A stretch of 62,841 nucleotides of DNA from a virus (lineage: Duplodnaviria > Heunggongvirae > Uroviricota > Caudoviricetes), in IMG/VR virus record IMGVR_UViG_3300045973_000170, positions 1 to 62,841 of that record; one strand, 5' to 3'. Shown here in pieces: positions 1-57,193 of the stretch; within the stretch, counting starts at the first letter, position 1; each line of letters starts with the position of its first letter. The notes below the pieces were generated by a model that did no database searches, was not told where the DNA came from, and saw only the letters and a program-made list of their open reading frames with translations. Made by a program: the position numbers and the translations under genes.

Positions 1-350
1 GGGGTCACTGACGGTGTCAAGGTAATGCTAGGCGTGATCGACGGCGTGATCGACGGCGTGATCGACGGGGTCACTGACGGCGTCAAGGTAATGCTAGGCG
101 TGACTGACGGCGTGATCGACGGGGTCACTGACGGTGTCAAGGTAATGCTAGGTGTGATCGACGGCGTGATCGACGGTGTCAAGGTAATGCTAGGCGTGAT
201 CGACGGCGTGATCGACGGGGTCACTGACGGTGTCAAGGTAATGCTAGGCGTGATCGACGGTGTTACTGACGGCACAACAGGAGTCACCGATGGGGTGACA
301 CTTGGCGTTACTGACGGCGTTATTGAGGGTGTTGGTGTTGGCGTCGGTGT
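1..350. repeat. Tandem 12-nt-unit coding repeat (TPS[V/I]) with higher-order units
   Basis: Repeated gacggcgtgatc / gacggggtcact / gacggtgtcaaggtaatgctaggc blocks. Confidence 0.9.
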
Positions 351-416
351 GGGTGACGGGGCAACACCCTGAAGTTGTGCGGCGGCAGGAAGGAGTGGTT
401 GAAAATTCCACGCCAT
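1..416 (-). CDS. Thr/Pro/Ser-rich (mucin-like) repeat protein; 3' end runs off the window
   Basis: Manual translation from ATG at 416: MAWNFQPLLPAAAQLQGVAPSPTPTPTPTPSITPSVTPSVTPSVTPVVPSVTPSITPSITLTPSVT..., open to position 1. Absent from the ORF track because it has no stop in the window; the + strand ORF 25..372 is its shadow. Confidence 0.85.
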   Translation of the reverse strand, partial: MAWNFQPLLPAAAQLQGVAPSPTPTPTPTPSITPSVTPSVTPSVTPVVPSVTPSITPSITLTPSVTPSITPSITPSITLTPSITPSITPSITLTPSVTPSITPSVTPSITLTPSVTPSITPSITPSITPSITLTPSVT

Positions 417-2941: not shown

Positions 2942-3202
2942 TTAGAACGATCCCCCGTCCACATCAATGTTCTCGTTGACTACGGTTTGAATATGTTGGG
3001 TTTTCCATGTTTGGGTGGCAACATCATAGACCACAGTGAATCCATCCTGCAACCCATAGGTTAGAGGGTCAACATTCTGTAGTTCTTCCAGCTTGGCGTT
3101 GGCAATCATAATACGGCGCAAGGAGGTATTGATGGTGGTTGGTGCCTGAACCTGAACCCTCAAAACACTCGGCTGTCGTACCCTGACGTTGATATTACTC
3201 AT
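2942..3202 (-). CDS. Small virion-associated protein
   Basis: 86 aa ending in the DGGSF motif typical of T4-like fibre/accessory proteins. Confidence 0.7.
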   Translation of the reverse strand: MSNINVRVRQPSVLRVQVQAPTTINTSLRRIMIANAKLEELQNVDPLTYGLQDGFTVVYDVATQTWKTQHIQTVVNENIDVDGGSF

Positions 3203-3534
3203 TATCGGGTAACCGAAGGAGTAATAGTGATGATTCCTTCAACCACACGCAATTTCTCAAAGGCGTTTGTCAACTTGATATCATAGACATAACGGCCATA
3301 CTTGAGGGATTGGGTTTCTGCATCTGTCAAGGTAATTGACAGTGACCCGTTGGCTGGTGTTCCTACTATGGCTGTGGTGAACGAAAGTCCACTGCTAGAG
3401 GAATAGCTACGACGAATTTGTGCAACCACTTGAAATGTGGACAAATCATAGGGAACCCCGCTGGCGTCGGTTAAATCAAACGTCCGACTGAACGTGGTTC
3501 CCTGATCAATTACTAGATTTTGAATTGCGGCCAT
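3202..3534 (-). CDS. Virion structural protein (BppU-like Ig-fold adaptor)
   Basis: MAAIQNLVIDQGTTF...GRYVYDI...RVVEGIITITPSVTR motif; start trimmed to ATG 3534. Confidence 0.75.
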   Translation of the reverse strand: MAAIQNLVIDQGTTFSRTFDLTDASGVPYDLSTFQVVAQIRRSYSSSSGLSFTTAIVGTPANGSLSITLTDAETQSLKYGRYVYDIKLTNAFEKLRVVEGIITITPSVTR

Positions 3535-3568
3535 GTGTTTCTCGGAGAAAGGTTCTCTCCTATTTATG

Positions 3569-4228
3569 CTACCACTTAGCCAGTGGACAGACAGAACCAG
3601 CCAACTGTGTCTTGACAATCATGGAGCAACCACATTCCTTACACCGATTTGACTCTGTTTCAAAACTCGGACACGCTTGACAGATGGCCAAACGCCTTCC
3701 ACCCTCTTCAGCCGTGGCAATGATTGGAAGATTGGTCATTCCACGCTTGGCTGTTGACCACATTTCCCTAACGAAGTTACGAGCCTGTTGAAGCTTGGGG
3801 GGAAATTCTGTGGCGTGAACCAATTCGTCAGCAAATGCCGCATCGGTCTGTACCATACGCGCCCTTTCATCGTCCGTGTAACGTGCCTGTTCGTGGGTTT
3901 CCCCATTGGCAATCATGCGTTCAGCAACTTCAATATCCTTAATCAAGTTCTGAATCATGTCCTGACCACGCCAAAACACCGGAGTCTGGTTCTTTGGAAG
4001 GTAATAATAAAGTTCTGGGGTAACCGGACGAGGGAAGGTCAAGGTTTCCTCGGGCATACAGACCGTAAACAACGCTACTGGACGGTTGTTGTTGATGATT
4101 TGCCTTTCCAAATCCTCTTGAATCCTTGGCTTGGCCTTGTCACAATTATCCGCGACAATCAAGATAAGGACGGGGGTGGTTCCTTCGTCAACAATTTTGA
4201 TGATTTCTGGAACGGTGTTCTCTCGCAT
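3569..4228 (-). CDS. Hypothetical protein: thioredoxin-like N-terminus plus C-terminal Cys-rich domain
   Basis: RRLAICQACP...CKECGC...CPLAKW; start trimmed to ATG 4228, directly after the upstream stop. Confidence 0.65.
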   Translation of the reverse strand: MRENTVPEIIKIVDEGTTPVLILIVADNCDKAKPRIQEDLERQIINNNRPVALFTVCMPEETLTFPRPVTPELYYYLPKNQTPVFWRGQDMIQNLIKDIEVAERMIANGETHEQARYTDDERARMVQTDAAFADELVHATEFPPKLQQARNFVREMWSTAKRGMTNLPIIATAEEGGRRLAICQACPSFETESNRCKECGCSMIVKTQLAGSVCPLAKW

Positions 4229-4229
4229 T

Positions 4230-6548
4230 CTAATTCTCCCGTCTGTCTTCACGTTCATAATGTGAAGTTCTGTGGTGATGGATTGGTGATGCCAACAGGA
4301 CAGCACCATAAATCTTGTTCTTTATCGATTCCTGATAGACATAGCTCATCCAAGTCTGCTCATAGGGGTGCGCCCATGTCGTTTCCAAGAAGACCTTACG
4401 ATTACCGTCCTTGTTCATGATCGTGGGCCAGTTGGCGTAGTATATGTCTCCTGTAATGTAACACAGTCCATCCACGTTGTCAATGGTGTTGAACGTAGTT
4501 CTTGGACAATTCGGATCAAGCCCGTGGACGGGCAATTTGTCATAATGCGGCCACATGGCAGTCCGGACAGCCTGAGGAACGTTGTACCACGATACCTGAA
4601 TGTTGTTGTCCATGTAGACTTCTGTAAATGATAACTTGAGGAAATCAAAGTCTTCCTTCTGCATAATCTTCTCAAGTTTTTCAAACAACCCCGGAATGAT
4701 GGTACGGAATCCATTGCGACAGAAGGGGGTCTTATCCTCTTCTGTATAGAACAGCATATCGTCTTCAAAGAAGATGTAGTAATCCGCATCCGATGCATCA
4801 AACATCTGGGCGGCAATCATGCGTCCACCACAGATACCACCATTCTTTCCAGAGGGATGATACTTGGCCCCATATGTCATAGCGATAATCCCATTAGCCA
4901 CAATAGAGTCTGGGTTGTTGGAATTGTCAATGACGATAACTTCATTGGCTTTCTTGAGCCAATCAGCTTTCTCAAGGCTCTTGAAAATCTCTGTCAACTG
5001 CTCTGGAAAGTTGAACGTTAGGATGTACAAGTCGGTCTTCTTTGGCTCGGTATTCATATAGGCATTTCCAAACTTCTTGGCTGTTTCAGCCACGGGTACC
5101 AATTCAGCCGTGTCATCCAAGAGAGCTTGAATGTACTTGATGATCAACCCATTCTCGTCTAGTTCGTAACGCCGGAAGATTTCTGGGCGACGATAGGACA
5201 TGATGGTAAAGATACTCTCTTCTGTTCCCATGTATCCAGCACTAAGCGTGTCCATGAGGAGGCTGTAATACATCGTATTCGCTTCACGGATTGCGGCCTG
5301 AGTACCGCCGAATAGACCACCACGACACACATAGTGAACAGGGGTAGTAGCATACGAATCAATCTTATTCTTGGGGAAACCGTGAATCTCTTGTGTTGTC
5401 TCATAGGGATAGCTCAAAAAGAGAAATGGCGAAAGGTGTGGAACCATCTTTTCAAGGGCTTTGTTCTCAATCAACATCTTGTCATAGACGGTATGCGTAA
5501 TGCCACTGTCAATCCAAATGAAGTTCTCGGTGTTGAATGGGTTCCAACACACCGCATTGTGAAGCAATGGCATCTTGGCCATTACGATGGGGTTGTACCA
5601 CTCATTGACAGCTTGAGGGCTACCCTTGAGCCACCCACCCTCTCCGGTCAGGTTTTGCCATGCTTCACTGGTGCGAATGCTTTGTATCTTATCCCAAAAG
5701 GGGGCCATTAGGTCTTTCACATCGGAAAGCTCCCAGACCCGAATGTAGGTATTCTTCTTGGTGCGCTTGGGATTTTCCCAGACGTAATGTTCCAGCGATG
5801 CCGGAAGATACAAGAAGAGCTTGGCGTCAATGTTCAAGAGATTCTTCAAATGCAGGATGTAATGCTCAAGATCACGCCCCACACGGCCAATGTCCCAGAA
5901 TCCGGTGACAATGGTGGTGTTAGTTAATGGGCCTTCTGGGGGTTGTGGACGCATAAGGTAATCCTCTCCTGTATCTTTGTCGCTTGCGGCATTCGTTCGT
6001 TCTCCGTCCCATAAAATGTCATAGGTGATGAAGTACTTGCGGTTTTCTGGAACATCCTTAATGTAGACCCCGAAATCATTACGGAGAGCAAAGGGACGAA
6101 GCCCCTTGTAAATGGTCATGAAAGTTTCAAAGGTAAGATTCTCTTGTAGATGAATCTCAGCTTGATTGTCGTAATACACACCTTGTGGCCCCTTAGGAAC
6201 AGCAATGATCATGTCTCGACACTTGGGATACAAGCGAGCAATAAGTGCAACTCCATCTTTCTCTGAAATATGTTCCAGCACATCTCCAAGAATGATCAGG
6301 TCATAGTACTCAAAGTCAAACGTGAGAATATCTTGATTGAAAACATTGGTATACTTGTCTTTCAGGTGATATTCTTCGATGTATGGGGTGAAGATTTCCA
6401 CGGCATCCATGCGGTGAAAATAGTCCTTCAGCCTGTCAGCATAGGTTCCAGAACCCGCCCCCACATCTAAAACAGTGTCAGTAGGACGGAACTTGGACTT
6501 GATAAAGTCAATGGTTTCTTCTTTGAAAATCGGAGTTGAGAACGGCAT
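4230..6548 (-). CDS. Multidomain enzyme: class I SAM methyltransferase + HtrL/YibB-like domain + GT-A-like glycosyltransferase
   Basis: VLDVGAGSG SAM motif; TIVTGFWDIGR...WIDSG (HtrL-like); C-terminal YYIFFEDD acidic motif. Confidence 0.75.
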   Translation of the reverse strand: MPFSTPIFKEETIDFIKSKFRPTDTVLDVGAGSGTYADRLKDYFHRMDAVEIFTPYIEEYHLKDKYTNVFNQDILTFDFEYYDLIILGDVLEHISEKDGVALIARLYPKCRDMIIAVPKGPQGVYYDNQAEIHLQENLTFETFMTIYKGLRPFALRNDFGVYIKDVPENRKYFITYDILWDGERTNAASDKDTGEDYLMRPQPPEGPLTNTTIVTGFWDIGRVGRDLEHYILHLKNLLNIDAKLFLYLPASLEHYVWENPKRTKKNTYIRVWELSDVKDLMAPFWDKIQSIRTSEAWQNLTGEGGWLKGSPQAVNEWYNPIVMAKMPLLHNAVCWNPFNTENFIWIDSGITHTVYDKMLIENKALEKMVPHLSPFLFLSYPYETTQEIHGFPKNKIDSYATTPVHYVCRGGLFGGTQAAIREANTMYYSLLMDTLSAGYMGTEESIFTIMSYRRPEIFRRYELDENGLIIKYIQALLDDTAELVPVAETAKKFGNAYMNTEPKKTDLYILTFNFPEQLTEIFKSLEKADWLKKANEVIVIDNSNNPDSIVANGIIAMTYGAKYHPSGKNGGICGGRMIAAQMFDASDADYYIFFEDDMLFYTEEDKTPFCRNGFRTIIPGLFEKLEKIMQKEDFDFLKLSFTEVYMDNNIQVSWYNVPQAVRTAMWPHYDKLPVHGLDPNCPRTTFNTIDNVDGLCYITGDIYYANWPTIMNKDGNRKVFLETTWAHPYEQTWMSYVYQESIKNKIYGAVLLASPIHHHRTSHYEREDRREN

Positions 6549-7411
6549 TATCTTAGGTATCCTCTTTTGACATATTCACTGTATTGGTATTCCAAATTAT
6601 CACGGCGATATCGAAAACAACCATCTTCTCCACCACGGGCAATGTGTCTTAGCACTGGAAATGTGATACATCCACCCTTTCCTTGCCACTGTTCCAATGT
6701 AATCAACTTCTCTTCATCCTCAAAGCACCGCACAATTTCCTTGACGCCATTCTTGTGCATGTAGGCACCCACGGTAATATCATCGTTCCAACCGCTGAGT
6801 GTTTCTGGGTCACAGAATTCCTTGATGAAATCTGGGAAGTCTTCACCAAAGAAACGGCGACGGTAGGATACTGTCTTGTAGTGCTGTAGGAAGTTGACAT
6901 CAACATCCTTGTAGACTGATACCACAAAGTGATTTCTCACATCAAAATACGCAGGATCATCACCTTCTTCAACCATCCAGTGAGTATCATCGGCCCGTGA
7001 TCCATCATAGCCACAGACAGTATTCACATAGGTTTCCTGATTCCTCACCTGTTCGGCCACCATTCGTGGATCATAGACCAAGTCATCGTCACAGACAATG
7101 ATAATAGCTTCAGGATCAGTGGTACGCATGACCGTATGATACAGCTTAGTAATCGGCCCCATGTCAGCCACACCCCTGAACAACTTGAGCTTGGGGTTAT
7201 CCCGTTCACGGTCTAGCAACCATTGAGGGATGATATACGGCTCACCTGTGTACTTCAGCACATCAGGGATATTTAGGTGGATTTCATACTCGCCTTCGAA
7301 CTCCTGATTCAGGAGTGAGTCGATGTTAGAAACCATTCCAAGCTCTGTCTCAGAATGAACCCCATTGAAGCGTTCGGGAATCGTGGTGAGAGTTACGATA
7401 ATCGGTGACAT
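6548..7411 (-). CDS. GT-A fold glycosyltransferase
   Basis: IIVTLTTIPERF...DMGPITKL...IIIVCDDDLVY; start trimmed to MSPII. Confidence 0.75.
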   Translation of the reverse strand: MSPIIVTLTTIPERFNGVHSETELGMVSNIDSLLNQEFEGEYEIHLNIPDVLKYTGEPYIIPQWLLDRERDNPKLKLFRGVADMGPITKLYHTVMRTTDPEAIIIVCDDDLVYDPRMVAEQVRNQETYVNTVCGYDGSRADDTHWMVEEGDDPAYFDVRNHFVVSVYKDVDVNFLQHYKTVSYRRRFFGEDFPDFIKEFCDPETLSGWNDDITVGAYMHKNGVKEIVRCFEDEEKLITLEQWQGKGGCITFPVLRHIARGGEDGCFRYRRDNLEYQYSEYVKRGYLR

Positions 7412-7412
7412 A

Positions 7413-9002
7413 TTACTCCGAATAGATTTTGAAGTGTCCGTCTTCCATTTCTGGTTGAACTCGATTGTTATCAATGGTTCCAATATGATTTCCTACAACA
7501 CCCCGATGGTCATGGAACCCACTGATATTGGAGTGAGGCAATGTTCGTACAATCGGAAAAGAATGGGCAGGACGGCCATTGTCATTCACAGGTCTGAAAT
7601 CTGTTTCCTTGTCCCACTTGGCACAGATGATATGAACCTGACGCCGCTTGAGGTAGTATCCCACGGAAATGTCATCATTCACGGCAAGGTCGGTAGTGAC
7701 CTCTTCAAAATCATCAGCAAAGAACTTGCGACGATAGGACACGGAATGCCAGTGACCCGGAACAAGCAACTGCCGATCTTCCTTCACGGGGAAGTACAGA
7801 TGGGTGGGACGAAGCATGTATCGCTTGACACCATTCTCGTCCGTCCAATCTCTCTTCTCTACAATGGAATCCCCACGGAAGCAAATGGCCGCATTGGGGT
7901 ATTGCAATAGCTTCTTCAGATGAAATTCCAACATGTCCTCATGATAGACATGATCATCGTCACACACTAGAATAATGTCTTCTGGGTTCTTAGAGACAGC
8001 CAAGAAGCCATCAATTTTGGCAATCGGCCCTCTGTCCTTCTCAATACGGTTTATGATAAGACGAGGATTGGCTTCTGCATACGCCTTCAACTCGTCAGAA
8101 ATGACATATTCTTCACCCGTAATGCGGTGGACTTTGGGAAGATTCAACAGTACTTTGTACTCAATTCCTGTCTTTTGATTCAACAGCGCATCAAGGTTCT
8201 GTTGTGCCTGTTCCCAATTCGCCAACCTCTTCGGGACTGTAGTGAGGGAAATGTAGATTTCCTGATTGCTCCGTGGAAGCCAGTTCAGGAACTCTAACTT
8301 ATGATCTGGGGCATCCGGCTTGTTAGGCCAATCCAACCCCGCCACGGGAAACTGTTGTAGGTCTGGTTCGAAGGACTCCACATGACGTTTGTTGATGAAG
8401 GACATTTCCAGCACAATGGGAATCATGCGCCCATCAAGGGGGAACATATTCACCCAATTGTTGGCATGAATGTGGTTCATCACGAAGTACTGATTGAGTC
8501 TCTTCATAACCTCAATCATTTTTACTTGGCGCGGTTCTTCATGCAACCAATGGAATTCAAGATTAATACCTGTGACTACCTTGGAAAGAGCCTCCATGTC
8601 CACGTTCAGGAGGTAATCATACTCACCCCCTTCAATATCAATCTTCAGAAAAACCTCTCCGGTCTTCTGAATCTCTGCATAGTGAGCAAGGAAATCTCGA
8701 CAGTTTGGCTCAGACCCCAATCCTTCTCGAAAGAACTTGATGTTCTCATCGACGGTACAGATATGGGGAAGATAGGGTGCCACAGGAAGCGTATGGTCAA
8801 ACATGTAGACAGGCTTCTTATAATCCCTTGAGAACTCTTCTTCATAGCGAGTTTCCCCACCCACTCCGTAGGTAAAGAGGGCATCACATTTCTCAAGTAC
8901 AGATACGGGCATAACGTAGCCGCCATCCTGTTGAGGGCCAAGACGCTTCTTCTCTTGGTGAATGTTCTGCGGTTGCAGGAGGGTGAACAGTTCGCTTACC
9001 AT
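7413..9002 (-). CDS. FkbM-like methyltransferase fused to a GT-A glycosyltransferase
   Basis: KRLGPQQDGGY, YGVG, FLKIDIEGGEY (FkbM/Methyltransf_22-like); C-terminal half ISLTTVPKRL...GPIAK...VCDDDHVY is paralogous to 6548..7411. Confidence 0.75.
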   Translation of the reverse strand: MVSELFTLLQPQNIHQEKKRLGPQQDGGYVMPVSVLEKCDALFTYGVGGETRYEEEFSRDYKKPVYMFDHTLPVAPYLPHICTVDENIKFFREGLGSEPNCRDFLAHYAEIQKTGEVFLKIDIEGGEYDYLLNVDMEALSKVVTGINLEFHWLHEEPRQVKMIEVMKRLNQYFVMNHIHANNWVNMFPLDGRMIPIVLEMSFINKRHVESFEPDLQQFPVAGLDWPNKPDAPDHKLEFLNWLPRSNQEIYISLTTVPKRLANWEQAQQNLDALLNQKTGIEYKVLLNLPKVHRITGEEYVISDELKAYAEANPRLIINRIEKDRGPIAKIDGFLAVSKNPEDIILVCDDDHVYHEDMLEFHLKKLLQYPNAAICFRGDSIVEKRDWTDENGVKRYMLRPTHLYFPVKEDRQLLVPGHWHSVSYRRKFFADDFEEVTTDLAVNDDISVGYYLKRRQVHIICAKWDKETDFRPVNDNGRPAHSFPIVRTLPHSNISGFHDHRGVVGNHIGTIDNNRVQPEMEDGHFKIYSE

Positions 9003-9679
9003 GGTTTGTGGGTGTTGAGGGGTGAAAATTCTCTTGAGGGAAGGGCATGACCATCACGCCCCATGTCTCCCTTACCACTATAGTTCTTCTTGACGATGAT
9101 GAGATTGCCACGATAAAAGTACTCATGCTTCCCAATGATATCAGTTACTTCCTTCAAATAGTAGGCGTACATTTCACGCCCATCCCCGCCACCAGACATG
9201 TCTTCCACACAATAGAATCCTCCATCAACCACATAAGGAAAGAGATTGCGAAGAGTAGTCAACTGAGCAAAAGCCAGATGTAATCCGTCATCGATGATGA
9301 TATCAAACTTTTGATCCCCCAAATTCTCATGACACTGGAAAGCATCGGTGGAACTAAAGATCATGGAATCAATACGATCCTCAGTAATTCGACAATCCTC
9401 GGCAATGTCTACCCCGATAACTTGAGCATTAGGAAAGTAATCGCGCCATGCGCGTAGCGATCCCCCCGGAGTGTAATGGGGGTGGTTTCGTGTAAACCCC
9501 ATTGCTGAACTCGGAACGTTCAAGAGACTACCAATACCAATCTCAAGCACGGTCTTGATTTCTGGTCGAATGTCCTTGAATACCGCATGATAACATTCGG
9601 TATAGTGACTCAGAAATTTGTCAGACCCGTACTTCTCAATGAGAATGGAAAGATCGTTTATGGGGTTGAAGTCGCTCAT
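8996..9679 (-). CDS. Class I SAM-dependent methyltransferase (sugar O-methyltransferase-like)
   Basis: VLEIGIG, GGSLRAWRDYFPNAQVIGVDI, DIIIDDGLH, GGFYCVED. Confidence 0.8.
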   Translation of the reverse strand: MSDFNPINDLSILIEKYGSDKFLSHYTECYHAVFKDIRPEIKTVLEIGIGSLLNVPSSAMGFTRNHPHYTPGGSLRAWRDYFPNAQVIGVDIAEDCRITEDRIDSMIFSSTDAFQCHENLGDQKFDIIIDDGLHLAFAQLTTLRNLFPYVVDGGFYCVEDMSGGGDGREMYAYYLKEVTDIIGKHEYFYRGNLIIVKKNYSGKGDMGRDGHALPSREFSPLNTHKPW

Positions 9680-10926
9680 TTGATGATATGTTCAATGCGT
9701 TCAGCCCAACCCTTGGACTTGCTATAAGCCCAGATAACCCACTTGAATGGTTTCTTGTCTGTCAAGAAATGGCGTTCCATGTGAATCCAATTGTCTGGTC
9801 GTGCCATGAATTCTTTGATTTCGCCTTCCTGAAAGTCTTGACGCCAAATACTAATACCATTTTCATCGTCATAGGAACAGACCATGTACTGATAATCATT
9901 CGACTTGAAGTTGGTCTTGTCAAAGGAAATCAGGTTATAGAAAGACTTACATAGGCTGGCTTCCCAATCTTTCACCTTGGGGTTCGGAGGATACTTGTAG
10001 TCCAGCGTATATTGCTGAACGGCCCGAAGCTTGAAGTCAAAACCAGCGTATTCCTCGTAATCGTGAATGGTGCGCTCTGTACCGATATCGTATCCGGTCA
10101 AATCGAAGCCATTGTCCTCAGTCCGGAACAACTGTCGAATCTTGGCGCGACCTCTGGATTGATGAGCATCTACATTGATACCACGCTTGTGTTCATCGTC
10201 CCACGAAAGCTTACCAGCACGTTCCTGTCGCATCGTGGAATGCCAAATCACCATAATGTGAGGATGAAAGAAATCATAGCCATGGGTAAATGACCGCAGG
10301 GTGAGGTTAATTTCCTCTCCACTGAAGTAGATATCCGGATCGTGTTTGATAGTCTTAGGCCATTCTGTTCTAGCGAAGCAGAAGTGACCAGAGAGGAAGC
10401 GGGAGCGCACTGGCCCTTTGAGATTTTTCCAATCAGGAATGCCGCTAGGACGAATGAAGATTGTTCCATGGGGGTAAAAGCAAACGAAATGTTGCAACCA
10501 TGGGTCTATTGAACGTCCCGCTGGATCATTGAAGGGGTCATAGAGTGGGAGATATCCTGTAATGATGGGTTTGAAGCCTTCCTCTTCCAACTTGGAATGC
10601 ATGTTGATTAGAGTTTCATCCCAGTTCTCTGCAAACCTGTGGTGAGAATCCAATTGTAAAATGTAGGTTTCATCAGTGATCATGTCATTGATGCGCTGTC
10701 TTGCATATGGCAAACCTTTGGCATCCGAATACAAAATGCGGTCAATTTTGAAGCGTGAATCGTCTTTGAATTCATCAAGGTTATCGAACGTATCATCTGG
10801 GTGATACTGATGACAAATACCAAACCGGAGATTCTCAGGATTCTTGGCTTTGGCCAATGCATCCTTAATGGTTGGTACAAGTTCTGGATCACGATAGGCA
10901 GGAAGATGAATGTAGATGGTACTCAT
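9676..10926 (-). CDS. GT60-like polypeptide GlcNAc-transferase (Skp1-hydroxyproline GlcNAc-T family), paralog 2
   Basis: IYIHLPAYRDPEL...KNPENLRFGICHQ...LQLDSHHRF...SGHFCF...YFSGEEINL...WH. Confidence 0.8.
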   Translation of the reverse strand: MSTIYIHLPAYRDPELVPTIKDALAKAKNPENLRFGICHQYHPDDTFDNLDEFKDDSRFKIDRILYSDAKGLPYARQRINDMITDETYILQLDSHHRFAENWDETLINMHSKLEEEGFKPIITGYLPLYDPFNDPAGRSIDPWLQHFVCFYPHGTIFIRPSGIPDWKNLKGPVRSRFLSGHFCFARTEWPKTIKHDPDIYFSGEEINLTLRSFTHGYDFFHPHIMVIWHSTMRQERAGKLSWDDEHKRGINVDAHQSRGRAKIRQLFRTEDNGFDLTGYDIGTERTIHDYEEYAGFDFKLRAVQQYTLDYKYPPNPKVKDWEASLCKSFYNLISFDKTNFKSNDYQYMVCSYDDENGISIWRQDFQEGEIKEFMARPDNWIHMERHFLTDKKPFKWVIWAYSKSKGWAERIEHIIK

Positions 10927-10933
10927 GTTACCC

Positions 10934-12181
10934 TCACTTGGTCACTAATGAACCTTCAATAATTGGGAGCCAACCCTTCTCTTCGGTGGCTGGCCATACG
11001 ATGTATTTAGTCGGCACTGCATCGGAGTAAAAACTACGCCACACATGGGCGAATTTATCATCCACCATTTCAGTCATCAAACGTTTAATCTCATTGGGGC
11101 TTGCGTCTTCTCGGTACAATTCGTTTCCATCAGCATCTTTGAACGCAATAACCCACACGGTATAGCTTCCTTCTGGGAAGGAACCTTTGTACAAGTCGAT
11201 GCAATACTTGCGATAACTGCACAACTTCTCTTCATACGTCGGATCATCGGCATTAGAAATCGGGGGATTTTCCTTGTCAATCGTTTTGCGATGCACCTTG
11301 CGCGTCCTGAATTGAATACCCGCATAACGCTCATAGTCCTCTAACTGTCGTGATCTTCCGATCAAGCGCGGCTGGACTACCCCATCGACACCAAGTAGCT
11401 GTCTATTGTGAGCGTGGGAGTTGTCGTTAAGGACGTTCCAATCAGTATGATCGTCCCAATGCTTCTTCTTATCGGAGCGTGTATACTCATGCCATACGAT
11501 AACCGTATTAGGGTGAAACAAGTCATATCCGGCAAGATAGGCACGGACAGAGAGATTGATTTCTTCCCCGTGGAAGTAGTAGGATGAGTCATATTCGACT
11601 TCTCGACAGAACTTTCCGAAGGTGAAAATGAAGTGACCAGAAACGAATCGAGCAAAAATCGGGTCTGGACGATCCCTCCAATCATCTAATGTATGGGGTG
11701 CAAAATGTACGTTACCATCCGGGGAGAACCTGTCAAAGGTTGTAATCCACGGAGAAGTAACGCGACCTTCTGGATCATGTTTGGGGTTATAGCTTGGGAG
11801 ATAGGCAGTGATCAAGGGCTTTGCGTAGCCCTTGTCCTGTAATCCTTTGAACATCGTGAAGAGTTGTTCATCCCAATCTTGGGTGAAGCGGTGGTGGGAA
11901 TCCAGTTGAAGCATGAATTCCTCATCATTGTATTGAAGGTTGAGCAAATGTCTTGCCCAACATACCCCCCTTGCGTTTTTGTAGTCAATGTCGATGATCT
12001 TTACCTGAGGGTGGTTCTTGAATTCCTCAAGGGTATCCCATTCATCCTCTTGTGCATGTTGCCATGCCACATGAATACGCAAGTTTTCGGGGTACTTTGC
12101 ATGTTTGAAACAATCACGAAGGGTTGGAACCAATTCAGGATCACGGTAGGCCGCGATCTGCACATAGATCAAATTTTTCAC
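10934..12181 (-). CDS. GT60-like polypeptide GlcNAc-transferase, paralog 1
   Basis: IYVQIAAYRDPEL...ARGVCWAR...LQLDSHHRF...SGHFIF...YFHGEEINL...WHEY. Confidence 0.8.
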   Translation of the reverse strand: MKNLIYVQIAAYRDPELVPTLRDCFKHAKYPENLRIHVAWQHAQEDEWDTLEEFKNHPQVKIIDIDYKNARGVCWARHLLNLQYNDEEFMLQLDSHHRFTQDWDEQLFTMFKGLQDKGYAKPLITAYLPSYNPKHDPEGRVTSPWITTFDRFSPDGNVHFAPHTLDDWRDRPDPIFARFVSGHFIFTFGKFCREVEYDSSYYFHGEEINLSVRAYLAGYDLFHPNTVIVWHEYTRSDKKKHWDDHTDWNVLNDNSHAHNRQLLGVDGVVQPRLIGRSRQLEDYERYAGIQFRTRKVHRKTIDKENPPISNADDPTYEEKLCSYRKYCIDLYKGSFPEGSYTVWVIAFKDADGNELYREDASPNEIKRLMTEMVDDKFAHVWRSFYSDAVPTKYIVWPATEEKGWLPIIEGSLVTK

Positions 12182-12216
12182 TAGAAACCTCTCAAAGAGT
12201 TAAACTGTTGTAGCGG

Positions 12217-12224
12217 TATTTATA
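12217..12224 (-). promoter_or_regulatory. T4-type late promoter TATAAATA heading the glycosyltransferase cluster
   Basis: Exact consensus in the 46-nt gap, 35 nt upstream of ATG 12181. Confidence 0.75.
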
Positions 12225-12227
12225 CGG

Positions 12228-12986
12228 TTAGCAAGAAGTGAATGTACAATCTCCACCACTACAGGAATAATATCCGGATGGTAGATTTCCCGTTCCAGCA
12301 GTAATCCAGTATGTTCCATTTGCGGGGTTACTACAATCGGAAACGTCAGCATACCACGTTCCATCACTTGCATGATGCAATAATCCTTCTGAACCAGTAA
12401 AGACTGAGGCACAACCAGCCAAATGACCGTAAGAAACGCTACTTACACTACAGTTAACAGCCGAAGGTGCTGGTGTTGAGGACGGGGTCACTGATGGTGT
12501 GACTGACGGGGTCACTGACGGCGTGATTGACGGGGTCACTGACGACGTGATTAACGGGGTCACTGACGGCGTCAATGATACTGACTCCGAAGGTGGTGGC
12601 GCACCAGCAGATGCCGAAGGTGTTCTTGACGGCGTTACTGACGGAGTACGGGTGATTGACGGCGTCACTGATGGGGGTGGCGCACCAATAGATGTTGACG
12701 GTGTGATCGATGGTGTGATCGATGGTGTGACAGACGGAGTCACAGATGGTGACGATGCAACAGCGTTTGTCGGTGTGACAGACGGGGTGACCGAAGGACA
12801 CACTGCGCTATGATTGTAGTTGTAGAACTTGGACATTGAATATGGTGCCAATCCGTCTGGTCTGAATGCACTGCATGGATTGATACCTATGGTTGACAAG
12901 TCCTTCAGGGAATAATTTCCACCAGACAAACCCATTTCTAGACGGATTTGATTGATGGTAATTTGCCCACTGGCTGGTAAAGTCAT
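12228..12986 (-). CDS. Tail-fibre-associated protein with a central TPS[V/I] mucin-like tract and Cys-rich C-terminus
   Basis: MTLPASGQITINQIRLEMG...SMSKFYNY N-terminal motif typical of proteins following S74 fibres; about 110 aa T/P/S tract. Confidence 0.8.
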   Translation of the reverse strand: MTLPASGQITINQIRLEMGLSGGNYSLKDLSTIGINPCSAFRPDGLAPYSMSKFYNYNHSAVCPSVTPSVTPTNAVASSPSVTPSVTPSITPSITPSTSIGAPPPSVTPSITRTPSVTPSRTPSASAGAPPPSESVSLTPSVTPLITSSVTPSITPSVTPSVTPSVTPSSTPAPSAVNCSVSSVSYGHLAGCASVFTGSEGLLHHASDGTWYADVSDCSNPANGTYWITAGTGNLPSGYYSCSGGDCTFTSC

Positions 12987-12998
12987 CTGGGTATCCTT

Positions 12999-13658
12999 TT
13001 ATAGACGATCAATTTTGTCGTTCAACTCTCGGATGGCTTCGATGAGCAACCCAATCATGTGTTCATAGTTCACAGCCTTTGTACCATCCTCACGGGTGGC
13101 CACAACTTCTGGAAGAACCTTTTCCACATCCTGTGCAATAACACCAGTGGTTGGACTCTTCTTCAGGTCTGCTCGCACATCCTCATTCCAATCCCATGTC
13201 ACACCACGGAGAGCCATAACCTTTACCAAAGCCTGAGGAATGACCCGAATGTTGTGCTTCATGCTGATATCAGAGGTTGCGTAAGCAATTACATCCCCAA
13301 TGACACTCAAGGTACCTTGAAGTGTGGTCGCACACCCATTAGCACCGATAGTCAGGGTAGTTGCCGCACCAGCAAAGTTAATGGTGGTGGCAACGGTATT
13401 GAAGACGGCGAAAATTGCGCCTGTACAGTACACACCCGTTGTGAAGACAGGGGAATCAGAAAAGACAACCTTTCCCGATCCTGTTTCATCACTCAAAAGT
13501 GCGGCCAACTCAGCCGAATTGGTGAATGTATTGGCGGTAACTGTAACATCAATACCGTCAATGGCATCCTTCAAATACTCAAAGGTACCATCAACCTCAT
13601 CATTAGTTAGTGGGCTACCCTTCGCGCTTCGAAGTAGATAAACGGGTGAAATTGGCAT
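12999..13658 (-). CDS. Fibre protein with C-terminal peptidase S74 (intramolecular chaperone) domain
   Basis: TSDISMKHNI...LRGVTWDW...GVIAQDVEKVLPEVV...AVNYEHMIGLLIEAIREL. Confidence 0.85.
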   Translation of the reverse strand: MPISPVYLLRSAKGSPLTNDEVDGTFEYLKDAIDGIDVTVTANTFTNSAELAALLSDETGSGKVVFSDSPVFTTGVYCTGAIFAVFNTVATTINFAGAATTLTIGANGCATTLQGTLSVIGDVIAYATSDISMKHNIRVIPQALVKVMALRGVTWDWNEDVRADLKKSPTTGVIAQDVEKVLPEVVATREDGTKAVNYEHMIGLLIEAIRELNDKIDRL

Positions 13659-13855: not shown

Positions 13856-16800
13856 TTATGCCTGTAGAGCAATGGTACGCATATCCCTAACCTTTGGCAC
13901 CCGTGTAGTGTCGCTGGAAAGGAACACAATCTTAATGGCAAATGTCTTGAATCCCGTATACAACACGGTATCTGTGGTGTATTTATAGACATAGGAAGAC
14001 AACCCACCCGCCTCTGAGGTAGAACCTGTGTCTGGAAGGGTGTAGTATTTCTCACTAAAATCCCCCGTTCCACTGACCACATGCTCCGTCATAGGTGTCC
14101 ATGGACGATCACCAAAGAAAACATTATCCGTTGAATTTAGGAGTTTTGCATATACTGCAATGCTTGATCCTGACGGGGTGTAGGATGATAGGTAGACCCG
14201 TAAATCTTCAGCTTCCTGCCCGTCATCAAGGATGACCGTGCGGGAAATGTAGCGAGAAAGGGCAGACCCTCCGTTACCAGTTTCACCTGTTGTGTCATTG
14301 TTGATAGAATTTCCGATGATAACACAACCCACCTTTTCCAAATCCACAATTGGGGAAATGTTAGCGGCATCTGTTGTCAAGGTAGCTTCCATCATGAATG
14401 ATACGTTGAACTTCGAATGAGAGAAAACAGCCATTGGGACAAGGAATTCAGTTGTTCCGTTAACTGCCAATCCTGAGTAAGAACTGAATGGTGTTTCATC
14501 GTACTTGTACAACATGTACGACCAATCGATGTTGGTGTTATTGAAATCAAGGTATGAAAGCGTTGGAGAAATAGCATCAACAGCCTTCACATTTTGTGTG
14601 GTTGTTGCAGTCAAATCTGGAAGCAAAATTGAACGGGTACAGGTGATTGCATCCGATGCATCAAAGTATCCAGAAGTGAGAAGCACTTGAGCTTCGTTGG
14701 TTTCATAGTTGAAGTACTGAATCGTTCCTGTACCTACGCCAGCCCCAGAACCAATTATCACATCACCCGGATAGAATACATCAGACATGTTAGAAAATGT
14801 CATGTATTCGATGGGGCTGTTGCGAAGAATAATGGTTCCTGTACCAGTGAAGTTTGCGGCAAAGGCCACGAACTTCATGTCTTCGTTGATGAACTGTGTC
14901 CATGTTCTGTTGTTTCCAGAGACATAGAGGATACCAGCGTTTGGTTGTTTGTCGATGATGTTGGTTGTTCCAATTTCCAACTGTCCAAGTTCACCCACCC
15001 ATACGTTATAGCCTGTATCATTTCCTGTGGGAAGCAATACAAAAGCGTACTCGGTATTGTTCTTCAAGTAGACAGGTGAAGGGAAGACAAACTCAGTAAC
15101 CCCAGAACCATCTTCTGAAGTATTCACTTCTTCTGGAAGCAAGGTAACTGTGCTATACGGAATAATGTTCTCCGTAGGATAGCCATTCTTTGTCTCTCTC
15201 AACTGTAATGTGATGGGAGAAACCAGAGACTTGGTTTGGAAGAACACACCAATTTTTGTAAGAACCACACCACCATCACTATTGCTCACGAAGAACGTTT
15301 GAGCAATGGGATCAACCGTTTGACTCAAAGATGTGCTAGTTGTAACCTGACGTTCCACTGCGGTATTCTGTGTGGTACGCTGGAAATCAAAGGTTGTTTC
15401 TGGCTTCTGGGTGCTGAGAATGGTGTTCTCATCAAATACCCGATCACCACTTGATGTATAAGAAGCATACGCCATCGTGGTAGCACTCGGTGAGAATGGA
15501 TCACTGCTAATATCAGAAAGGATGAAATTCTTACTTCCTGACATGAACGTTTGCGCCGGGATACGGAATTGACCCGTAACAGAACCAAAAGCATCTGTGG
15601 CAATGGTGGTTCCATAGATATCTGAAGAACTCATCTTGCAATGAGCCGACACATCAACCCCATCAAAGAATGGGAAGACGGTGGTATATGCCTTCAAACG
15701 GGTAGCCGTGAAGGTAACAACCACGCTTCTCATGTAAGGGATCACATTGGCGGTTTTGCTTTCTTCAAGACTCAACGCAATACCATCACGCAACTGACGT
15801 TGTGAGGTTGTGAGAATTGAGGGATCAATTGCCCCATCACTTGACTGATCGATGTTTGAATCAAACTTCTGCCATAGAGTCTTCCAATTTTCCCACTGTG
15901 TACCCCAAGCGGTAATCATGGAAACCCAATTGTCTGAAATACCGTTAGTGTTGTACAGGATTTCAGGCTGAACAGAGGTATCAGGCCATTCGTCGCTACT
16001 CGGTGAAAGCTCCATAGAGCCTTCAAAAGAGAAGAGGATTTGACTTGAACAATTGCGAGACTTGGTGGCGTATGGGCCATCCGTGTACACAACATGTGTG
16101 TATGGGAGTGTAACCAATGTTCCGTCTGATGGGATGGTAACCATTGGGGGAAATACTGTTGATCCAACTGTCGGTGCAACTGAAGGAATAGTACCAATAG
16201 CTCCGCTGTTCGTACCCGTGATTACATTTCCTGTAGTGATAACACCAGATGCCTCTTCCAAATAGACACGAAGCCAACGATATTCAGCGTTGGAAACGAT
16301 CAATGAGAAATAGCGAATGGTTGCGGTACCACCACCATTACAAGTAATTGCTTCACCCTCCACAAAGGAGTATGAACCAATCAACGGCTGTTGAACAACA
16401 ACTGTCTTGTCATTGGACTTGCGAACAACCCCAGAAGAGGCATCGTCAAATTCCATGAACACGTTATCCAGATTGAAGAAAGGTCGTGCCTCTCCCCGTG
16501 CAATTGAACAAGCGTAATCTGGGTTGTATACATTACCGACGTTATGACCGATCAACGGATCAACCATGATACCGTTCTTGAAACGGTCATTTCCACCAAT
16601 GTCAGGAATCAACATTGAAGCGGCTTGCTGTTCCAATACTGAAAGAGAAGCATACTTCTCCAAACGTTCTACTCGACGCTGGATGGAACCAATATCACGC
16701 ATGGTGAATCGGCTGTTGTCTACAAAGGTGATTGTGGTTGCATATTCTGGCTTACCCGCCTGACGCGCATAGTATGGCGACAAAGACGGGAAGGCTGGAA

Positions 16801-19345
16801 TTCTCACAATAGCCAACGTCATAGCATTATCGGCCTGTCGTGGGGTGATCGGATGTTCCGAAGGAATGCCAGTAACAGTGGTAAATGTTCCCGCGCTATC
16901 CAAAATCACACGATCTATGCGTGACAGATTATAGGTGATATCTGTAATGAATGTATCCGATGGGGATGGTGATGTTGCACCAGCACCAAAGGTTACTGTT
17001 GAGGAAGGATTGATTGTGGCCAACGCAATCGTTGTCGGATCGGGGGTGGATGTGTTGTTCGCCGTTGAACGGAAATCCAATACATCACGAAGACTGAACG
17101 TGATCCCAGACGTTGTCGTGTAGGTAGGAATATCGTGCCATTCAATTTGTGATGATGATGGGGCAACACCCTGTACTGGTAGTGGATATGACTTGACAGA
17201 GTAAAATCCACTACTTGATGAATGATAGAAGAAGTCAAGTTTGACAATCAACCACAAACCTGTGATTGTTTCTGCGTTGTTCTTTGCAATGGATGCTAGA
17301 TCATACACCGTATCAGTCTGACCGTTATTCAAGTCAAACCATGAGGTTACATCATTCCAATCCGGATCATCAATCGGGGGGTCTGATGTGGGGTATGCTG
17401 TGCCACTTGGTGCCGCCCAAATCTTCTCAATGGAGATAACATCGTGCAACCCCAAACAGAATGGGCCTTCCCCAGATGCTTGAATCTTCACATAGCGGCT
17501 TGTCTTCAACGTCTTCTGATTGCATGTGGCCGCATTCTTTCTAACAGTAACCATTACATCAACAGTTGGTGATCCCCCTGTTGAGGCATTCAAATCAATG
17601 TCCAGTGTTTGTGCATCTACGCGAGTAACAAAGGCAGTGGCAAGATCAAAGGTCTTTCCTGTGGCCCCAAGACCTGTTCCAGCCTGAACCAATGTAACAC
17701 GAAGGTTCTCGTCAAGAATGGTGTCGCTAACTGCACTAAATGCCCACTCTTCATCCCCAGAAAGGGTAACAGACAATTTTCCTGTTCCGTCCACAGCCTG
17801 TTCTGAGAAGGTCTTCTTGTAGACATATGAAGAGTCTGAGAGTGTCTTTACACTCTTATGTGTCAACGAAAAGATGGGGGCAACAAACTTTGTGTCAATA
17901 AAGGCGGGGGTTCCGGAGACATTGGCAAAACTGTCATTGGTTTCATCCAAGAAGAATGAACCGATGCTCGCCACGCCACCTGATGTAAACACAACGTCAT
18001 GAAGATACAAGCGATAGACAGCACCAGCCGTGCCAATGGTACCATTGTCGTATTGAATGTTTCGTATTCGCGCTGTACCAATTTCTGATCCACCGACAGA
18101 TGGGGTGGGGTACGAACCACCACAAGACGCATTTCGAATGCTCACCTTAGTGTCGGTGTTCAAACGCCACGAACCAACCACATTATTTACCAAAATGTAG
18201 TTGCCAAAGAAAGTGCTGATGGCCTGATTTTGGAGAATGTCGGCATCAAGACTCTTGCTAATCTCAAGGAATTCCGATGAGAAAAGCTCCTGCTCATAAC
18301 CACGCACATACGCCTTTCCGGGTTCTACCCCAACAACAAGCTTGCTGGCATCACCAACAGGTGATGTGGAGTTGGTGTACTTGCCGTGGTTCGTTCCTTT
18401 CAAAAGATGTTCGTTGACAATGATGGGGAATGGACGGACGGTGTAATCACCGGATTCGTCATAGGTGCGCGTAGCAAACTCACGACTCAATTCTGAGTAC
18501 TGAGTCTTATCATATCGACGCTTGATGGCACCAGCCTCAACCTCAAAGAGCAAGAAGAAGTCTGTTGGCTTCTGGTCCAAGACACCATACGAAACCAATT
18601 CAGTGACAATCTTGTATCGATCTGCACCCGGAGCATTAAAGTTGTATGCACCCTGTGCAGGATCGTTTAGTGTGGCATCATCAACGCTGGTAACAATCTC
18701 TTCCACAACACGGAAGCCGATCTTCTGGGTGGGGGTGCTGGAATAACGATCCACGATGATCGTCTGATTGCTGTGTACAAGGAAACGTCCGTTCACATAC
18801 ACAATACCATCATTCAAGGAGAAGAGCGAACCCTCTCCTGTTGGGGCTACACCAGTTACCTTAAACGAACTAACACCAGAGTTGTTTCCAGTGACCGTCA
18901 ACACATCAAAAGCAGAGAAGATCGAAATGGTATTGACCAACAACGGGTCAGGATCGGTCACGTTGTTGGATGTGTAATGGAGATAAAGTGTGTTGAGGTT
19001 TGGGTTTTGAGCTTCTGTTCCCGCAAACGTCTTCTTGATGATAGCACTCACACCATTGGGGGCCGTGACGGTCATCCCCTCATAGTACGACAATGGGTAG
19101 ACGGAAGTATCAATGTCCTCAATCTTCACATAGGGAGTCTTGAAGTTATGTGATTCAGCACAACCCGTGATGATAGAACCCTGCTTGTAAATCGTATCTC
19201 CAAACTTTTTGATCTGGTTTTGGAGCATCGTTTGCAATTGGGTTAGCTCACGCGCCTGTACCGAATATCCCGGCTTGAACAAGATTTCATAGAACTTCTT
19301 GTTCGCAACAAAATCGTCGTAATAAGGAAAGGTATTGATGTTCAT
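13856..19345 (-). CDS. DUF4815-type large virion structural protein
   Basis: 1829 aa; N-terminal PYYDDF...LFKPGYSVQARELTQLQTMLQNQI, DESGDYTVRPF, C-terminal PKVRDMRTIAL. Confidence 0.85.
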   Translation of the reverse strand: MNINTFPYYDDFVANKKFYEILFKPGYSVQARELTQLQTMLQNQIKKFGDTIYKQGSIITGCAESHNFKTPYVKIEDIDTSVYPLSYYEGMTVTAPNGVSAIIKKTFAGTEAQNPNLNTLYLHYTSNNVTDPDPLLVNTISIFSAFDVLTVTGNNSGVSSFKVTGVAPTGEGSLFSLNDGIVYVNGRFLVHSNQTIIVDRYSSTPTQKIGFRVVEEIVTSVDDATLNDPAQGAYNFNAPGADRYKIVTELVSYGVLDQKPTDFFLLFEVEAGAIKRRYDKTQYSELSREFATRTYDESGDYTVRPFPIIVNEHLLKGTNHGKYTNSTSPVGDASKLVVGVEPGKAYVRGYEQELFSSEFLEISKSLDADILQNQAISTFFGNYILVNNVVGSWRLNTDTKVSIRNASCGGSYPTPSVGGSEIGTARIRNIQYDNGTIGTAGAVYRLYLHDVVFTSGGVASIGSFFLDETNDSFANVSGTPAFIDTKFVAPIFSLTHKSVKTLSDSSYVYKKTFSEQAVDGTGKLSVTLSGDEEWAFSAVSDTILDENLRVTLVQAGTGLGATGKTFDLATAFVTRVDAQTLDIDLNASTGGSPTVDVMVTVRKNAATCNQKTLKTSRYVKIQASGEGPFCLGLHDVISIEKIWAAPSGTAYPTSDPPIDDPDWNDVTSWFDLNNGQTDTVYDLASIAKNNAETITGLWLIVKLDFFYHSSSSGFYSVKSYPLPVQGVAPSSSQIEWHDIPTYTTTSGITFSLRDVLDFRSTANNTSTPDPTTIALATINPSSTVTFGAGATSPSPSDTFITDITYNLSRIDRVILDSAGTFTTVTGIPSEHPITPRQADNAMTLAIVRIPAFPSLSPYYARQAGKPEYATTITFVDNSRFTMRDIGSIQRRVERLEKYASLSVLEQQAASMLIPDIGGNDRFKNGIMVDPLIGHNVGNVYNPDYACSIARGEARPFFNLDNVFMEFDDASSGVVRKSNDKTVVVQQPLIGSYSFVEGEAITCNGGGTATIRYFSLIVSNAEYRWLRVYLEEASGVITTGNVITGTNSGAIGTIPSVAPTVGSTVFPPMVTIPSDGTLVTLPYTHVVYTDGPYATKSRNCSSQILFSFEGSMELSPSSDEWPDTSVQPEILYNTNGISDNWVSMITAWGTQWENWKTLWQKFDSNIDQSSDGAIDPSILTTSQRQLRDGIALSLEESKTANVIPYMRSVVVTFTATRLKAYTTVFPFFDGVDVSAHCKMSSSDIYGTTIATDAFGSVTGQFRIPAQTFMSGSKNFILSDISSDPFSPSATTMAYASYTSSGDRVFDENTILSTQKPETTFDFQRTTQNTAVERQVTTSTSLSQTVDPIAQTFFVSNSDGGVVLTKIGVFFQTKSLVSPITLQLRETKNGYPTENIIPYSTVTLLPEEVNTSEDGSGVTEFVFPSPVYLKNNTEYAFVLLPTGNDTGYNVWVGELGQLEIGTTNIIDKQPNAGILYVSGNNRTWTQFINEDMKFVAFAANFTGTGTIILRNSPIEYMTFSNMSDVFYPGDVIIGSGAGVGTGTIQYFNYETNEAQVLLTSGYFDASDAITCTRSILLPDLTATTTQNVKAVDAISPTLSYLDFNNTNIDWSYMLYKYDETPFSSYSGLAVNGTTEFLVPMAVFSHSKFNVSFMMEATLTTDAANISPIVDLEKVGCVIIGNSINNDTTGETGNGGSALSRYISRTVILDDGQEAEDLRVYLSSYTPSGSSIAVYAKLLNSTDNVFFGDRPWTPMTEHVVSGTGDFSEKYYTLPDTGSTSEAGGLSSYVYKYTTDTVLYTGFKTFAIKIVFLSSDTTRVPKVRDMRTIALQA
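13980..13987 (-). promoter_or_regulatory. Possible gene-internal late promoter TATAAATA
   Basis: Exact consensus about 125 nt upstream of ORF 13662..13853. Confidence 0.45.
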
Positions 19346-20977: not shown

Positions 20978-21000
20978 ATGATTGTGTTAGGATATGAGAC

Positions 21001-57191: not shown

Positions 57192-57193
57192 GG

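Follow-up and report, generated by a model that had tools for sequence, protein, structure and literature searches.

What does a T4-like phage do with a row of sugar-transferring enzymes encoded in the middle of its tail region? The question is raised by positions 4,230 to 12,986 of the IMG/VR record IMGVR_UViG_3300045973_000170, where two tandem genes of glycosyltransferase (GT) family GT60, here called GT60A and GT60B, head an operon of further transferase and methyltransferase genes. The window, that is, the whole stretch of DNA analysed, comprises nt 1-62,841 of this linear record of 126,841 nt, which is ~75% complete (CheckV) and whose source phage is a T4-like myovirus. A sequence-only reading had proposed that tandem paralogs of ~415 aa with AYRDPE, DSHHRF and GEEIN motifs belong to GT60 and are thereby related to the mucin-initiating family GT27, that their operon lies inside the tail region directly downstream of a gene with a TPS[V/I] tract, and that such enzymes and tracts should co-occur among relatives. 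The family, the context and the co-occurrence all hold, and the interpretation as a whole, a mucin-type glycosylation system for the virion, is partly supported. Our analysis points to the following as the probable explanation: a late-expressed, phage-encoded cytoplasmic O-glycosylation system in which the GT60 enzymes would prime the phage's own Thr/Pro/Ser tracts, other transferases would extend the chains, and methyltransferases would decorate them.

The two leading genes are full-length PF11397/GT60 proteins. Both score far above the PF11397 cut-off of 21 bits in hidden Markov model searches, no non-peptide GT family was hit, and the PF11397 proteins were also recovered by a six-frame search of the genome:

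10934-12181, minus strand: GT60A, 415 aa, GTG start; PF11397 E 2.5e-68, 231.6 bits; PHROG 24687 over the full length
9676-10926, minus strand: GT60B, 416 aa; PF11397 E 2.6e-49, 169 bits

The paralogs are 38% identical to each other and share all three motifs, with DSH at residues 94-96 of GT60A and 93-95 of GT60B and GEEIN at 205 and 203, respectively. In a 23-sequence alignment of relatives, D94, S95, H96, G205, E206, E207, I208 and N209 are invariant, and the extended motif HGEEINLS is one that we take to resemble the WGGENxE motif of GT27. The longest hydrophobic stretch is at most 6 residues in either protein, with no membrane anchor, and strand 1 begins at residue 4-5 in the GT60A model, which together argue that the GT60 enzymes act in the cytoplasm, the site of virion assembly.

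The relationship to GT27 was examined by structure prediction on the same alignment, which gave an AlphaFold2 (AF2) model of GT60A with a mean confidence (pLDDT) of 88. The model has a predicted catalytic domain of the GT-A fold at residues ~1-300 and a beta-rich C-terminal domain at ~310-415. When it was searched against the PDB with Foldseek, the top 47 matches were all GT27 polypeptide N-acetylgalactosamine (GalNAc) transferases, with E down to 5e-11, and VIA-align placed mouse GalNAc-T1 first (Z 21.0, root-mean-square deviation (rmsd) 3.7 over 274 residues), followed by TgGalNAc-T3 of Toxoplasma (Z 20.0), SpsA (17.9) and then other GT-A enzymes. The nearest solved folds are thus the mucin-initiating enzymes, as had been expected from the motifs. 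Sequence identity between GT60A and the GalNAc-transferases is merely 13-14%, and the GT60 alignment profile found no match among PDB sequences at E 0.01, so the tie between GT60 and GT27 is one of fold. Protist members of GT60 are polypeptide alpha-N-acetylglucosamine (alpha-GlcNAc) transferases described as related to GT27, the main difference being the lack of a ricin domain (PMC8724618). On these grounds, GT60A is proposed to be an initiating polypeptide N-acetylhexosamine (HexNAc) transferase. The beta-rich C-terminal domain (nt 10937-11250) lies outside the Pfam model and has invariant Trp, Arg and His; an atlas feature search with residues 300-415 returned no usable match, and the domain could be a substrate-targeting stand-in for the ricin domain of GT27. 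A complex prediction for GT60A with a 35-residue tract peptide scored 0.00, a value obtained without controls that counts neither for nor against binding.

The candidate acceptors are proteins with repeat tracts. A six-frame scan of the whole record found exactly four long open reading frames (ORFs) with (S/T)(V/I)TPS tracts, which run for 117-166 residues and are 22-24% proline; a fifth match, in the 58-aa ORF 34228-34401, lacks any TPS triplet and resembles noise.

12228-12986, minus strand: candidate acceptor, 252 aa, adjoining the operon on its 5' side; the tract covers residues 64-180 (nt 12447-12797) and has 15 TPS triplets
21009-23066, minus strand: baseplate wedge protein in gp7 position, 685 aa, candidate acceptor; N-terminus assigned to PHROG 17744 'baseplate wedge subunit'
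3-416, minus strand: candidate acceptor, N-terminal 138 aa, cut by the contig end; TPS[V/I] tract from residue 14 on
119067-119714, beyond the window: fourth TPS[V/I]-tract protein, ~216 aa, tract C-terminal, from the six-frame scan

The baseplate protein ends in a TPS-rich tail of 166 aa (residues 520-685, nt 21012-21509). The 252-aa protein, for which no Pfam or PHROG family was found, consists of an N-terminal domain of 60 aa, the tract and a Cys-rich C-terminal domain. The latter (12228-12446) spans ~70 aa with 7 Cys, matches no family and could form a small binding head on a stalk.

Whether enzyme and tract belong together was addressed by comparing the 80 best-matching phage loci and 80 bacterial loci with 80 T4-like control loci centred on gp6, none of which holds GT60. 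Tract ORFs occur in 33/80 GT60 loci (3.68 per 100 kb) as opposed to 1/80 control loci (0.11 per 100 kb). The same trend is seen in whole records, where a DNA pattern encoding TPxxTPxxTP is present in 27 of the 36 GT60 records of at least 50 kb, including 12/13 of those at least 85% complete, and in none of 11 long T4-like controls, while the reversed pattern was essentially empty. PF11397 is absent from 10/11 control records; when the records are regrouped by its presence, the pattern is found in 27/37 holders versus 0/10 T4-like non-holders (Fisher p 3.6e-5). The pairing extends to gene neighbours, for which genes were called greedily and tracts by a composition rule. Immediately upstream of GT60, at position -1, a Thr/Pro-repeat gene stands in 13/77 distinct phage loci and 9/78 bacterial loci, and tract genes are concentrated within two positions of GT60 both in phage loci (20/300 versus 29/1142 farther away, p 1e-3) and in bacterial loci (18/295 versus 6/659, p 9e-6). 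Over all positions, they make up 1/696 genes in T4-like control loci and 49/1442 in GT60 loci.

The timing of expression can be read from a candidate promoter. Between the end of the tract gene (stop at 12228) and GT60A (GTG start at 12181) stands a T4-type late promoter box, TATAAATA, followed by a GAGAGG ribosome-binding site:

12217-12224, minus strand: the TATAAATA box, 36 nt ahead of the GT60A start codon
2874, 12217, 13980, 21001 and 30300 (minus strand), 30776 (plus strand) and 38963-38970 (minus strand): exact matches to TATAAATA

These 7 exact copies in the window compare with 0.84 expected by chance, and the remaining ones precede structural genes. Given where the box sits, between the tract gene and GT60A, the operon is probably a separate late unit; the predicted promoter, if active here, fits enzyme action on late (virion) proteins.

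Downstream of the GT60 pair, the genes overlap or abut one another and encode the enzymes that would act after initiation, with up to four further GT-A domains and three domains that resemble S-adenosylmethionine (SAM) methyltransferases:

8996-9679, minus strand: SAM-methyltransferase-like protein, 227 aa; Methyltransf_31 23.8 bits (below cut-off), PHROG 21658 'methyltransferase' E 4e-12
7413-9002, minus strand: FkbM-type methyltransferase (N half) joined to a GT2 GT-A domain (C half), 529 aa; FkbM 22.1 bits (just below cut-off), GT2 27.4 bits (above)
6548-7483, minus strand: weak GT2 protein, 311 aa; Pfam GT2 17 bits (below cut-off)
4230-6548, minus strand: three-domain protein, 772 aa; SAM-methyltransferase 28.8 bits, HtrL_YibB 57 bits, C-terminal GT-A

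The 227-aa protein has an ortholog of 77% identity in locus L005, the closest relative, and relatives of the 529-aa and of the 311-aa protein each occur in 20/80 GT60 loci, the L005 ortholog of the latter being 71% identical. The start of the 311-aa protein is uncertain, as the listed TTG lies 71 nt inside the upstream gene. The 772-aa protein begins with a SAM-methyltransferase domain (residues ~1-200), continues with HtrL_YibB (~208-475, a GT6-like GT-A fold) and ends in another GT-A domain (~495-772). The AF2 model of residues 208-772 (nt 4233-5927) has a pLDDT of 87, and its C half, weak as GT-A in Pfam, is clear by predicted fold, with B4GALNT1 at Z 16.5 and POMGnT1 and GnT-I also matching; an EDD motif is invariant in this domain. 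HtrL_YibB itself, listed in Pfam as of unknown function, is modelled as a GT6-like GT-A fold (BoGT6a Z 13.2, GTB Z 11.9), and together with the GT-A domain that follows it would form a dual-transferase unit. The expectation of one HtrL-like domain was thus borne out. Of the three further GT-A-like domains that had been proposed, the GT2 domain of the 529-aa protein and, by fold, the C-terminal GT-A of the 772-aa protein stand, while the 311-aa protein is left at 17 bits; among three proposed methyltransferase domains, the one in the 772-aa protein is secured and the other two fall below Pfam cut-offs. All GT2-like signals of the 127-kb record fall inside the operon cluster. No sugar epimerase/dehydratase (PF01370) was found in the 127-kb record (~75% complete), so host nucleotide sugars are the likely donors.

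The operon lies in a co-directional run of genes on the minus strand, and fibre, fibre-assembly and baseplate wedge genes surround the transferases:

13856-19345, minus strand: large virion-type protein, 1829 aa; PHROG 358/877
12999-13658, minus strand: fibre protein, 219 aa, with a C-terminal intramolecular chaperone (Peptidase_S74); Pfam, PHROG
3202-3618, minus strand: tail-fibre assembly protein, 138 aa, just downstream of the operon; PHROG 3304 and 1084
19352-24961: baseplate wedge genes; PHROG

Within the baseplate module, the gp6-like wedge gene (23066-24961) encodes a protein that shares 35% identity with its counterpart in Pelagibacter phage HTVC008M and 30-34% with those of Kyanoviridae phages, and the host is probably Gram-negative. 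A near-identity search with the region found no close relative at the DNA level among 50,697 phage records. The GC content is 0.52-0.59 at positions 50000-58000 of the window and ~0.45-0.47 elsewhere in it.

The PF11397-type family is by no means confined to this phage. A metagenome protein collection holds 5,333 members at E<=1e-3, many of them 50-76% identical, and at least 595 matching IMG/VR contigs were found by an alignment-based scan; a scan of viral contigs with a single protein gave no match. The genomes of 191 bacterial species match as well, with Gemmatimonadota, Saprospiraceae, Verrucomicrobiota, Acidobacteriota and Proteobacteria among them, in some cases on contigs of megabase length. 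The cultured phages with a match are limited to XacN1 and Xoo-sp13 of Xanthomonas and CM1 and RAS14 of Stenotrophomonas, at 36-41% identity. L005 lies on a 168-kb record that is 93% complete, and its cluster is syntenic with ours, upstream fibre and tract genes included; the cluster proteins are 62-87% identical, and for the upstream tract gene the alignment is limited to the first ~60 residues. The dual-transferase portion (residues 208-772, HtrL plus GT-A) recurs in 56/80 phage loci, often abutting GT60, and in 40/80 bacterial loci. One further GT60 locus, L043 (IMGVR GVMAG-M-3300014493-9_000001), is on a contig labelled as a giant-virus metagenome-assembled genome, with a (PT)n ORF nearby.

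The order of GT60A followed by GT60B is likewise conserved, being found in 18/80 phage loci (for example L005, L007, L012, L015, L016, L025, L026 and L030), and the B orthologs form a group of their own, with 53-87% identity to GT60B and 33-37% to GT60A. The tracts of loci with both paralogs are richer in Ser than those of loci with A only (median S/(S+T) 0.42 versus 0.23, p 0.02) and also richer in Val/Ile/Leu (p 0.003), in a comparison of n=6 with 19 that ignores kinship. This may hint that the paralogs are specialised by acceptor.

Cultured phage XacN1 offers a link to real virions. Its GT60 homologue is ORF334 (40% identity), and ORF330, 4 kb downstream of ORF334, is the dual GT-A companion, with 36% identity over residues 210-772; the companion is also found in RAS14. 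The tract pattern matches 43 times in XacN1 and 52 times in RAS14, with no match to the reversed pattern, and the XacN1 matches include the large ORF369-372 beside tail sheath genes as well as the 2,823-aa ORF384. Its virions have in fact been stained: at least two bands of XacN1 virions were positive with a Schiff glycoprotein kit, and the authors propose that the phage's two transferases make the glycoproteins (PMC5852040, main text and Suppl. Fig. S4). As the bands were not matched to proteins, they support glycosylated virions in GT60 phages but not tracts as the sites. In both XacN1 and RAS14, a ~765-aa gene directly follows GT60 (L249, XacN1 219791-222088) and is annotated as a carbamoyltransferase in the XacN1 record; the glycans of these two phages may be carbamoylated.

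Taken together, the following sequence of events would account for the locus. In the late phase, the soluble GT60 enzymes would encounter freshly synthesised tract proteins in the cytoplasm, and GT60A and GT60B would transfer HexNAc, most likely alpha-GlcNAc from host uridine diphosphate (UDP)-GlcNAc, an abundant host metabolite, to Thr and/or Ser of the tracts. Among the acceptors would be the baseplate protein in gp7 position, by way of its C-terminal tail, and the small proteins of the fibre region. Chain extension would then fall to the dual GT-A protein, with its HtrL-like and GT-A domains, and to the GT2-like domains, and the three methyltransferase-like domains would cap or decorate the chains, FkbM-type enzymes that methylate sugars being known. 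The glycosylated tails would project from the baseplate and fibre region. Within this scheme we infer which residues accept the sugar, which sugar it is, in what order the steps run, that sugar rather than protein is methylated, and what the coat does, its roles proposed by the sequence-only reading being shielding, adhesion or receptor mimicry. A far bolder version, which we regard as a long shot, would make GT60 and the dual GT-A enzyme the core of a widespread and so far undescribed cytoplasmic mucin- or proteoglycan-type system of bacteria and phages. Here, GT60 would prime Thr/Ser in Thr/Pro repeats and the dual enzyme would polymerise by alternating addition, in the manner of LARGE1 on dystroglycan, giving long methyl-capped chains and a glycan brush on the baseplate and fibre tails of T4-like and jumbo phages. 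A and B would be split by acceptor type, because Ser- and Val/Ile-rich TPS[V/I] units accompany the A+B pair, and eukaryotic mucin initiation by GT60/GT27 could derive from the prokaryotic and phage family.

Several observations weigh against glycosylated tracts and lend weight to other explanations. Glycosylation of the tract proteins in this phage is a prediction from genes, and several accessory-domain assignments score below Pfam cut-offs. The compared loci are best matches and mutually related, so that the p-values given above overstate independence; common descent by itself does not account for the pairing, however, because it spans unrelated bacterial phyla as well as phages and depends on position inside the loci. 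The tract pattern is missing from 10/37 PF11397-holding records, though most of these are fragments, and a control fragment, G046 (the record of L227), has a short PF11397 gene (333-aa open frame) with no tract pattern in its 40 kb. The GT60 gene of XacN1 lies near replication genes and a carbamoyltransferase gene, with no adjoining tract gene. The proposal that the tract proteins are virion proteins holds, by homology, for the baseplate protein; that of 119067-119714 sits among primase, ribonucleotide reductase, endolysin and NAMPT genes and in no virion module, so a virion destination is established for the baseplate protein only. One alternative is that the cluster makes or alters glycans on something other than protein, for instance a polysaccharide of the host envelope, a sugar linked to lipid or a free oligosaccharide, with the tracts as flexible linkers that by chance abound in the phage and bacterial lineages concerned. 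The records and the XacN1 locus that lack tracts fit this explanation, as do the PHROGs category of the GT60 family ('moron, auxiliary metabolic gene') and the frequent occurrence of GT2, HtrL and FkbM-type domains in loci for polysaccharide and lipopolysaccharide. We nevertheless consider it unlikely: characterised GT60 and GT27 enzymes act on polypeptides, the operon enzymes examined have no membrane segment, the gene row has neither a flippase nor a polymerase gene, tract genes are enriched at -1 in phages and many bacterial phyla, and a late promoter box stands ahead of the operon.

A different division of labour, to which we give a slim chance, would have phage proteins glycosylated outside the tracts, on surface residues of capsid, sheath or fibre or on the Cys-rich ends, with the tracts as bare spacers. 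The unassigned XacN1 bands would allow this, and mycobacteriophage glycans are placed on the C-termini of capsid and tail-tube subunits in PMC12619734; the gene-level association, however, is specific to tract genes, and bacterial GT60 genes pair with tract genes too, where no virion exists. The acceptor could also be hydroxyproline within the tracts, as in the Skp1 pathway of Dictyostelium, where a prolyl hydroxylase acts before Gnt1. The proline content of the tracts would suit such a route, and Gnt1, a characterised GT60 enzyme, does modify the hydroxyproline of Skp1 (PMC8724618). We hold it to be quite improbable, as no 2-oxoglutarate-Fe(II) prolyl hydroxylase domain (PF13640) was found in 127 kb of a record ~75% complete, though a host enzyme is possible. 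Least credible of all is that the transferases hypermodify phage DNA, as glycosylated hydroxymethyl bases, against restriction. T4-type phages are classic for DNA glucosylation, diverse viral GTs modify DNA (PMC13326640), and the XacN1 GT60 gene is near DNA polymerase and RNase H genes, but the operon has a late promoter box in a tail module, and chromosomal homologues in bacteria pair with repeat proteins of secreted type. PMC13326640 mentions neither GT60, nor GlcNAc-type GT-A enzymes, nor carbamoyl groups, nor XacN1; base-hydroxymethylase genes were not searched for.

If O-glycosylation of the phage's own tracts is the correct reading, its implications reach well beyond one record. To our knowledge, protein glycosylation of phage particles has been shown only in a few actinobacteriophages, and initiation of mucin-type glycans by GT60/GT27, as far as we know, is regarded as a eukaryotic trait. 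Our literature searches found no paper linking GT60/PF11397 to phages or to bacterial Thr/Pro repeats. Virion glycosylation of phages as such is already known from mycobacteriophages, as PMC12619734 sets out. This window contributes a T4-like example with a late promoter box, a conserved pair of A and B paralogs and a baseplate protein with a terminal tract, together with the fold evidence for the HtrL companion as a dual GT-A enzyme and the link to Schiff-positive XacN1 virions. The GT60 family occurs in at least 595 viral contigs and in the genomes of 191 bacterial species, and its partners, Thr/Pro-repeat proteins and a fixed dual transferase, recur systematically. Should the tracts carry glycans, many large environmental phages would have a sugar brush on their host-recognition apparatus, with consequences for adsorption, for resistance to proteases and grazing, for adherence to mucus or polysaccharide, and for how antibodies recognise therapeutic phages. 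Tract glycosylation would also mean a cytoplasmic O-glycosylation route in Gram-negative bacteria and would bear on the origin of mucin-type glycosylation.

Several known systems can be compared with the locus. The protist GT60 enzymes (Gnt1 of Dictyostelium, the Golgi pp-alphaGlcNAcT, and the mucin Thr GlcNAc-transferase of Trypanosoma cruzi) share with the phage proteins the HMM family, the DxH and Gal/GalNAc-T-like motifs and a GT-A fold nearest to GT27. Gnt1 is soluble and cytoplasmic, as the phage GT60s are predicted to be, and trypanosome mucins are Thr/Pro-rich, like the tracts that are the genetic partners of the phage GT60s. The phage enzymes differ in their phage or bacterial origin, in an extra beta-rich C-terminal domain of ~110 aa and in a fixed dual GT-A partner, and their activity is predicted. 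GT27 has the same DSH metal motif, gives the best structural match of the catalytic domain and would lead one to expect dense Thr/Ser/Pro acceptor tracts; the phage enzymes, in contrast, have no recognised ricin-type lectin domain and no membrane anchor and would be cytoplasmic rather than Golgi-resident.

The companion enzyme was compared with the dual-GT-A polymerases LARGE1, K4CP and PmHS2, which have two GT-A domains per chain; both halves of residues 208-772 are modelled as GT-A (Z 16.5 and 13.2). Mimivirus R699 aligns over both GT-A halves of the 772-aa protein (Z 13.8, rmsd 18), and whole-length alignments of residues 208-772 to R699 and the three polymerases have rmsd 14-25. In chlorovirus PBCV-1, A064R combines two transferase domains and a methyltransferase in one polypeptide, as part of a virus-encoded, host-independent machine. 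The 772-aa phage protein joins two GT-A domains and a methyltransferase in the same manner, a likeness of layout, and a parallel with PBCV-1 is likewise drawn in the XacN1 paper (PMC5852040). PBCV-1 and the giant viruses with fibril clusters are viruses of eukaryotes, however, and the PBCV-1 glycans are N-linked.

The logic of initiation followed by extension is also familiar from the serine-rich-repeat adhesins of Gram-positive bacteria, in which cytoplasmic GtfA/GtfB start O-GlcNAc on Ser/Thr repeats and co-encoded transferases then extend it. Membership of the phage enzymes in the GtfA/GtfB system was rejected, since GtfA/B have the GT-B fold (GT4) and the initiating candidates of the phage are GT-A; the logic alone is shared. 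Another known case is the glycosylation of mycobacteriophage virions, where phage transferases decorate the phage's own structural proteins and terminal extensions serve as sites (PMC12619734, citing Freeman et al. 2023). The targets described there are capsid and tail-tube C-termini and not long Thr/Pro/Ser repeats; in the phage studied here, the candidate terminal extension is the 166-aa C-terminal tail of the baseplate protein. As in the mycobacteriophage type, the transferase genes stand beside a structural module, here with a late-promoter box in front.

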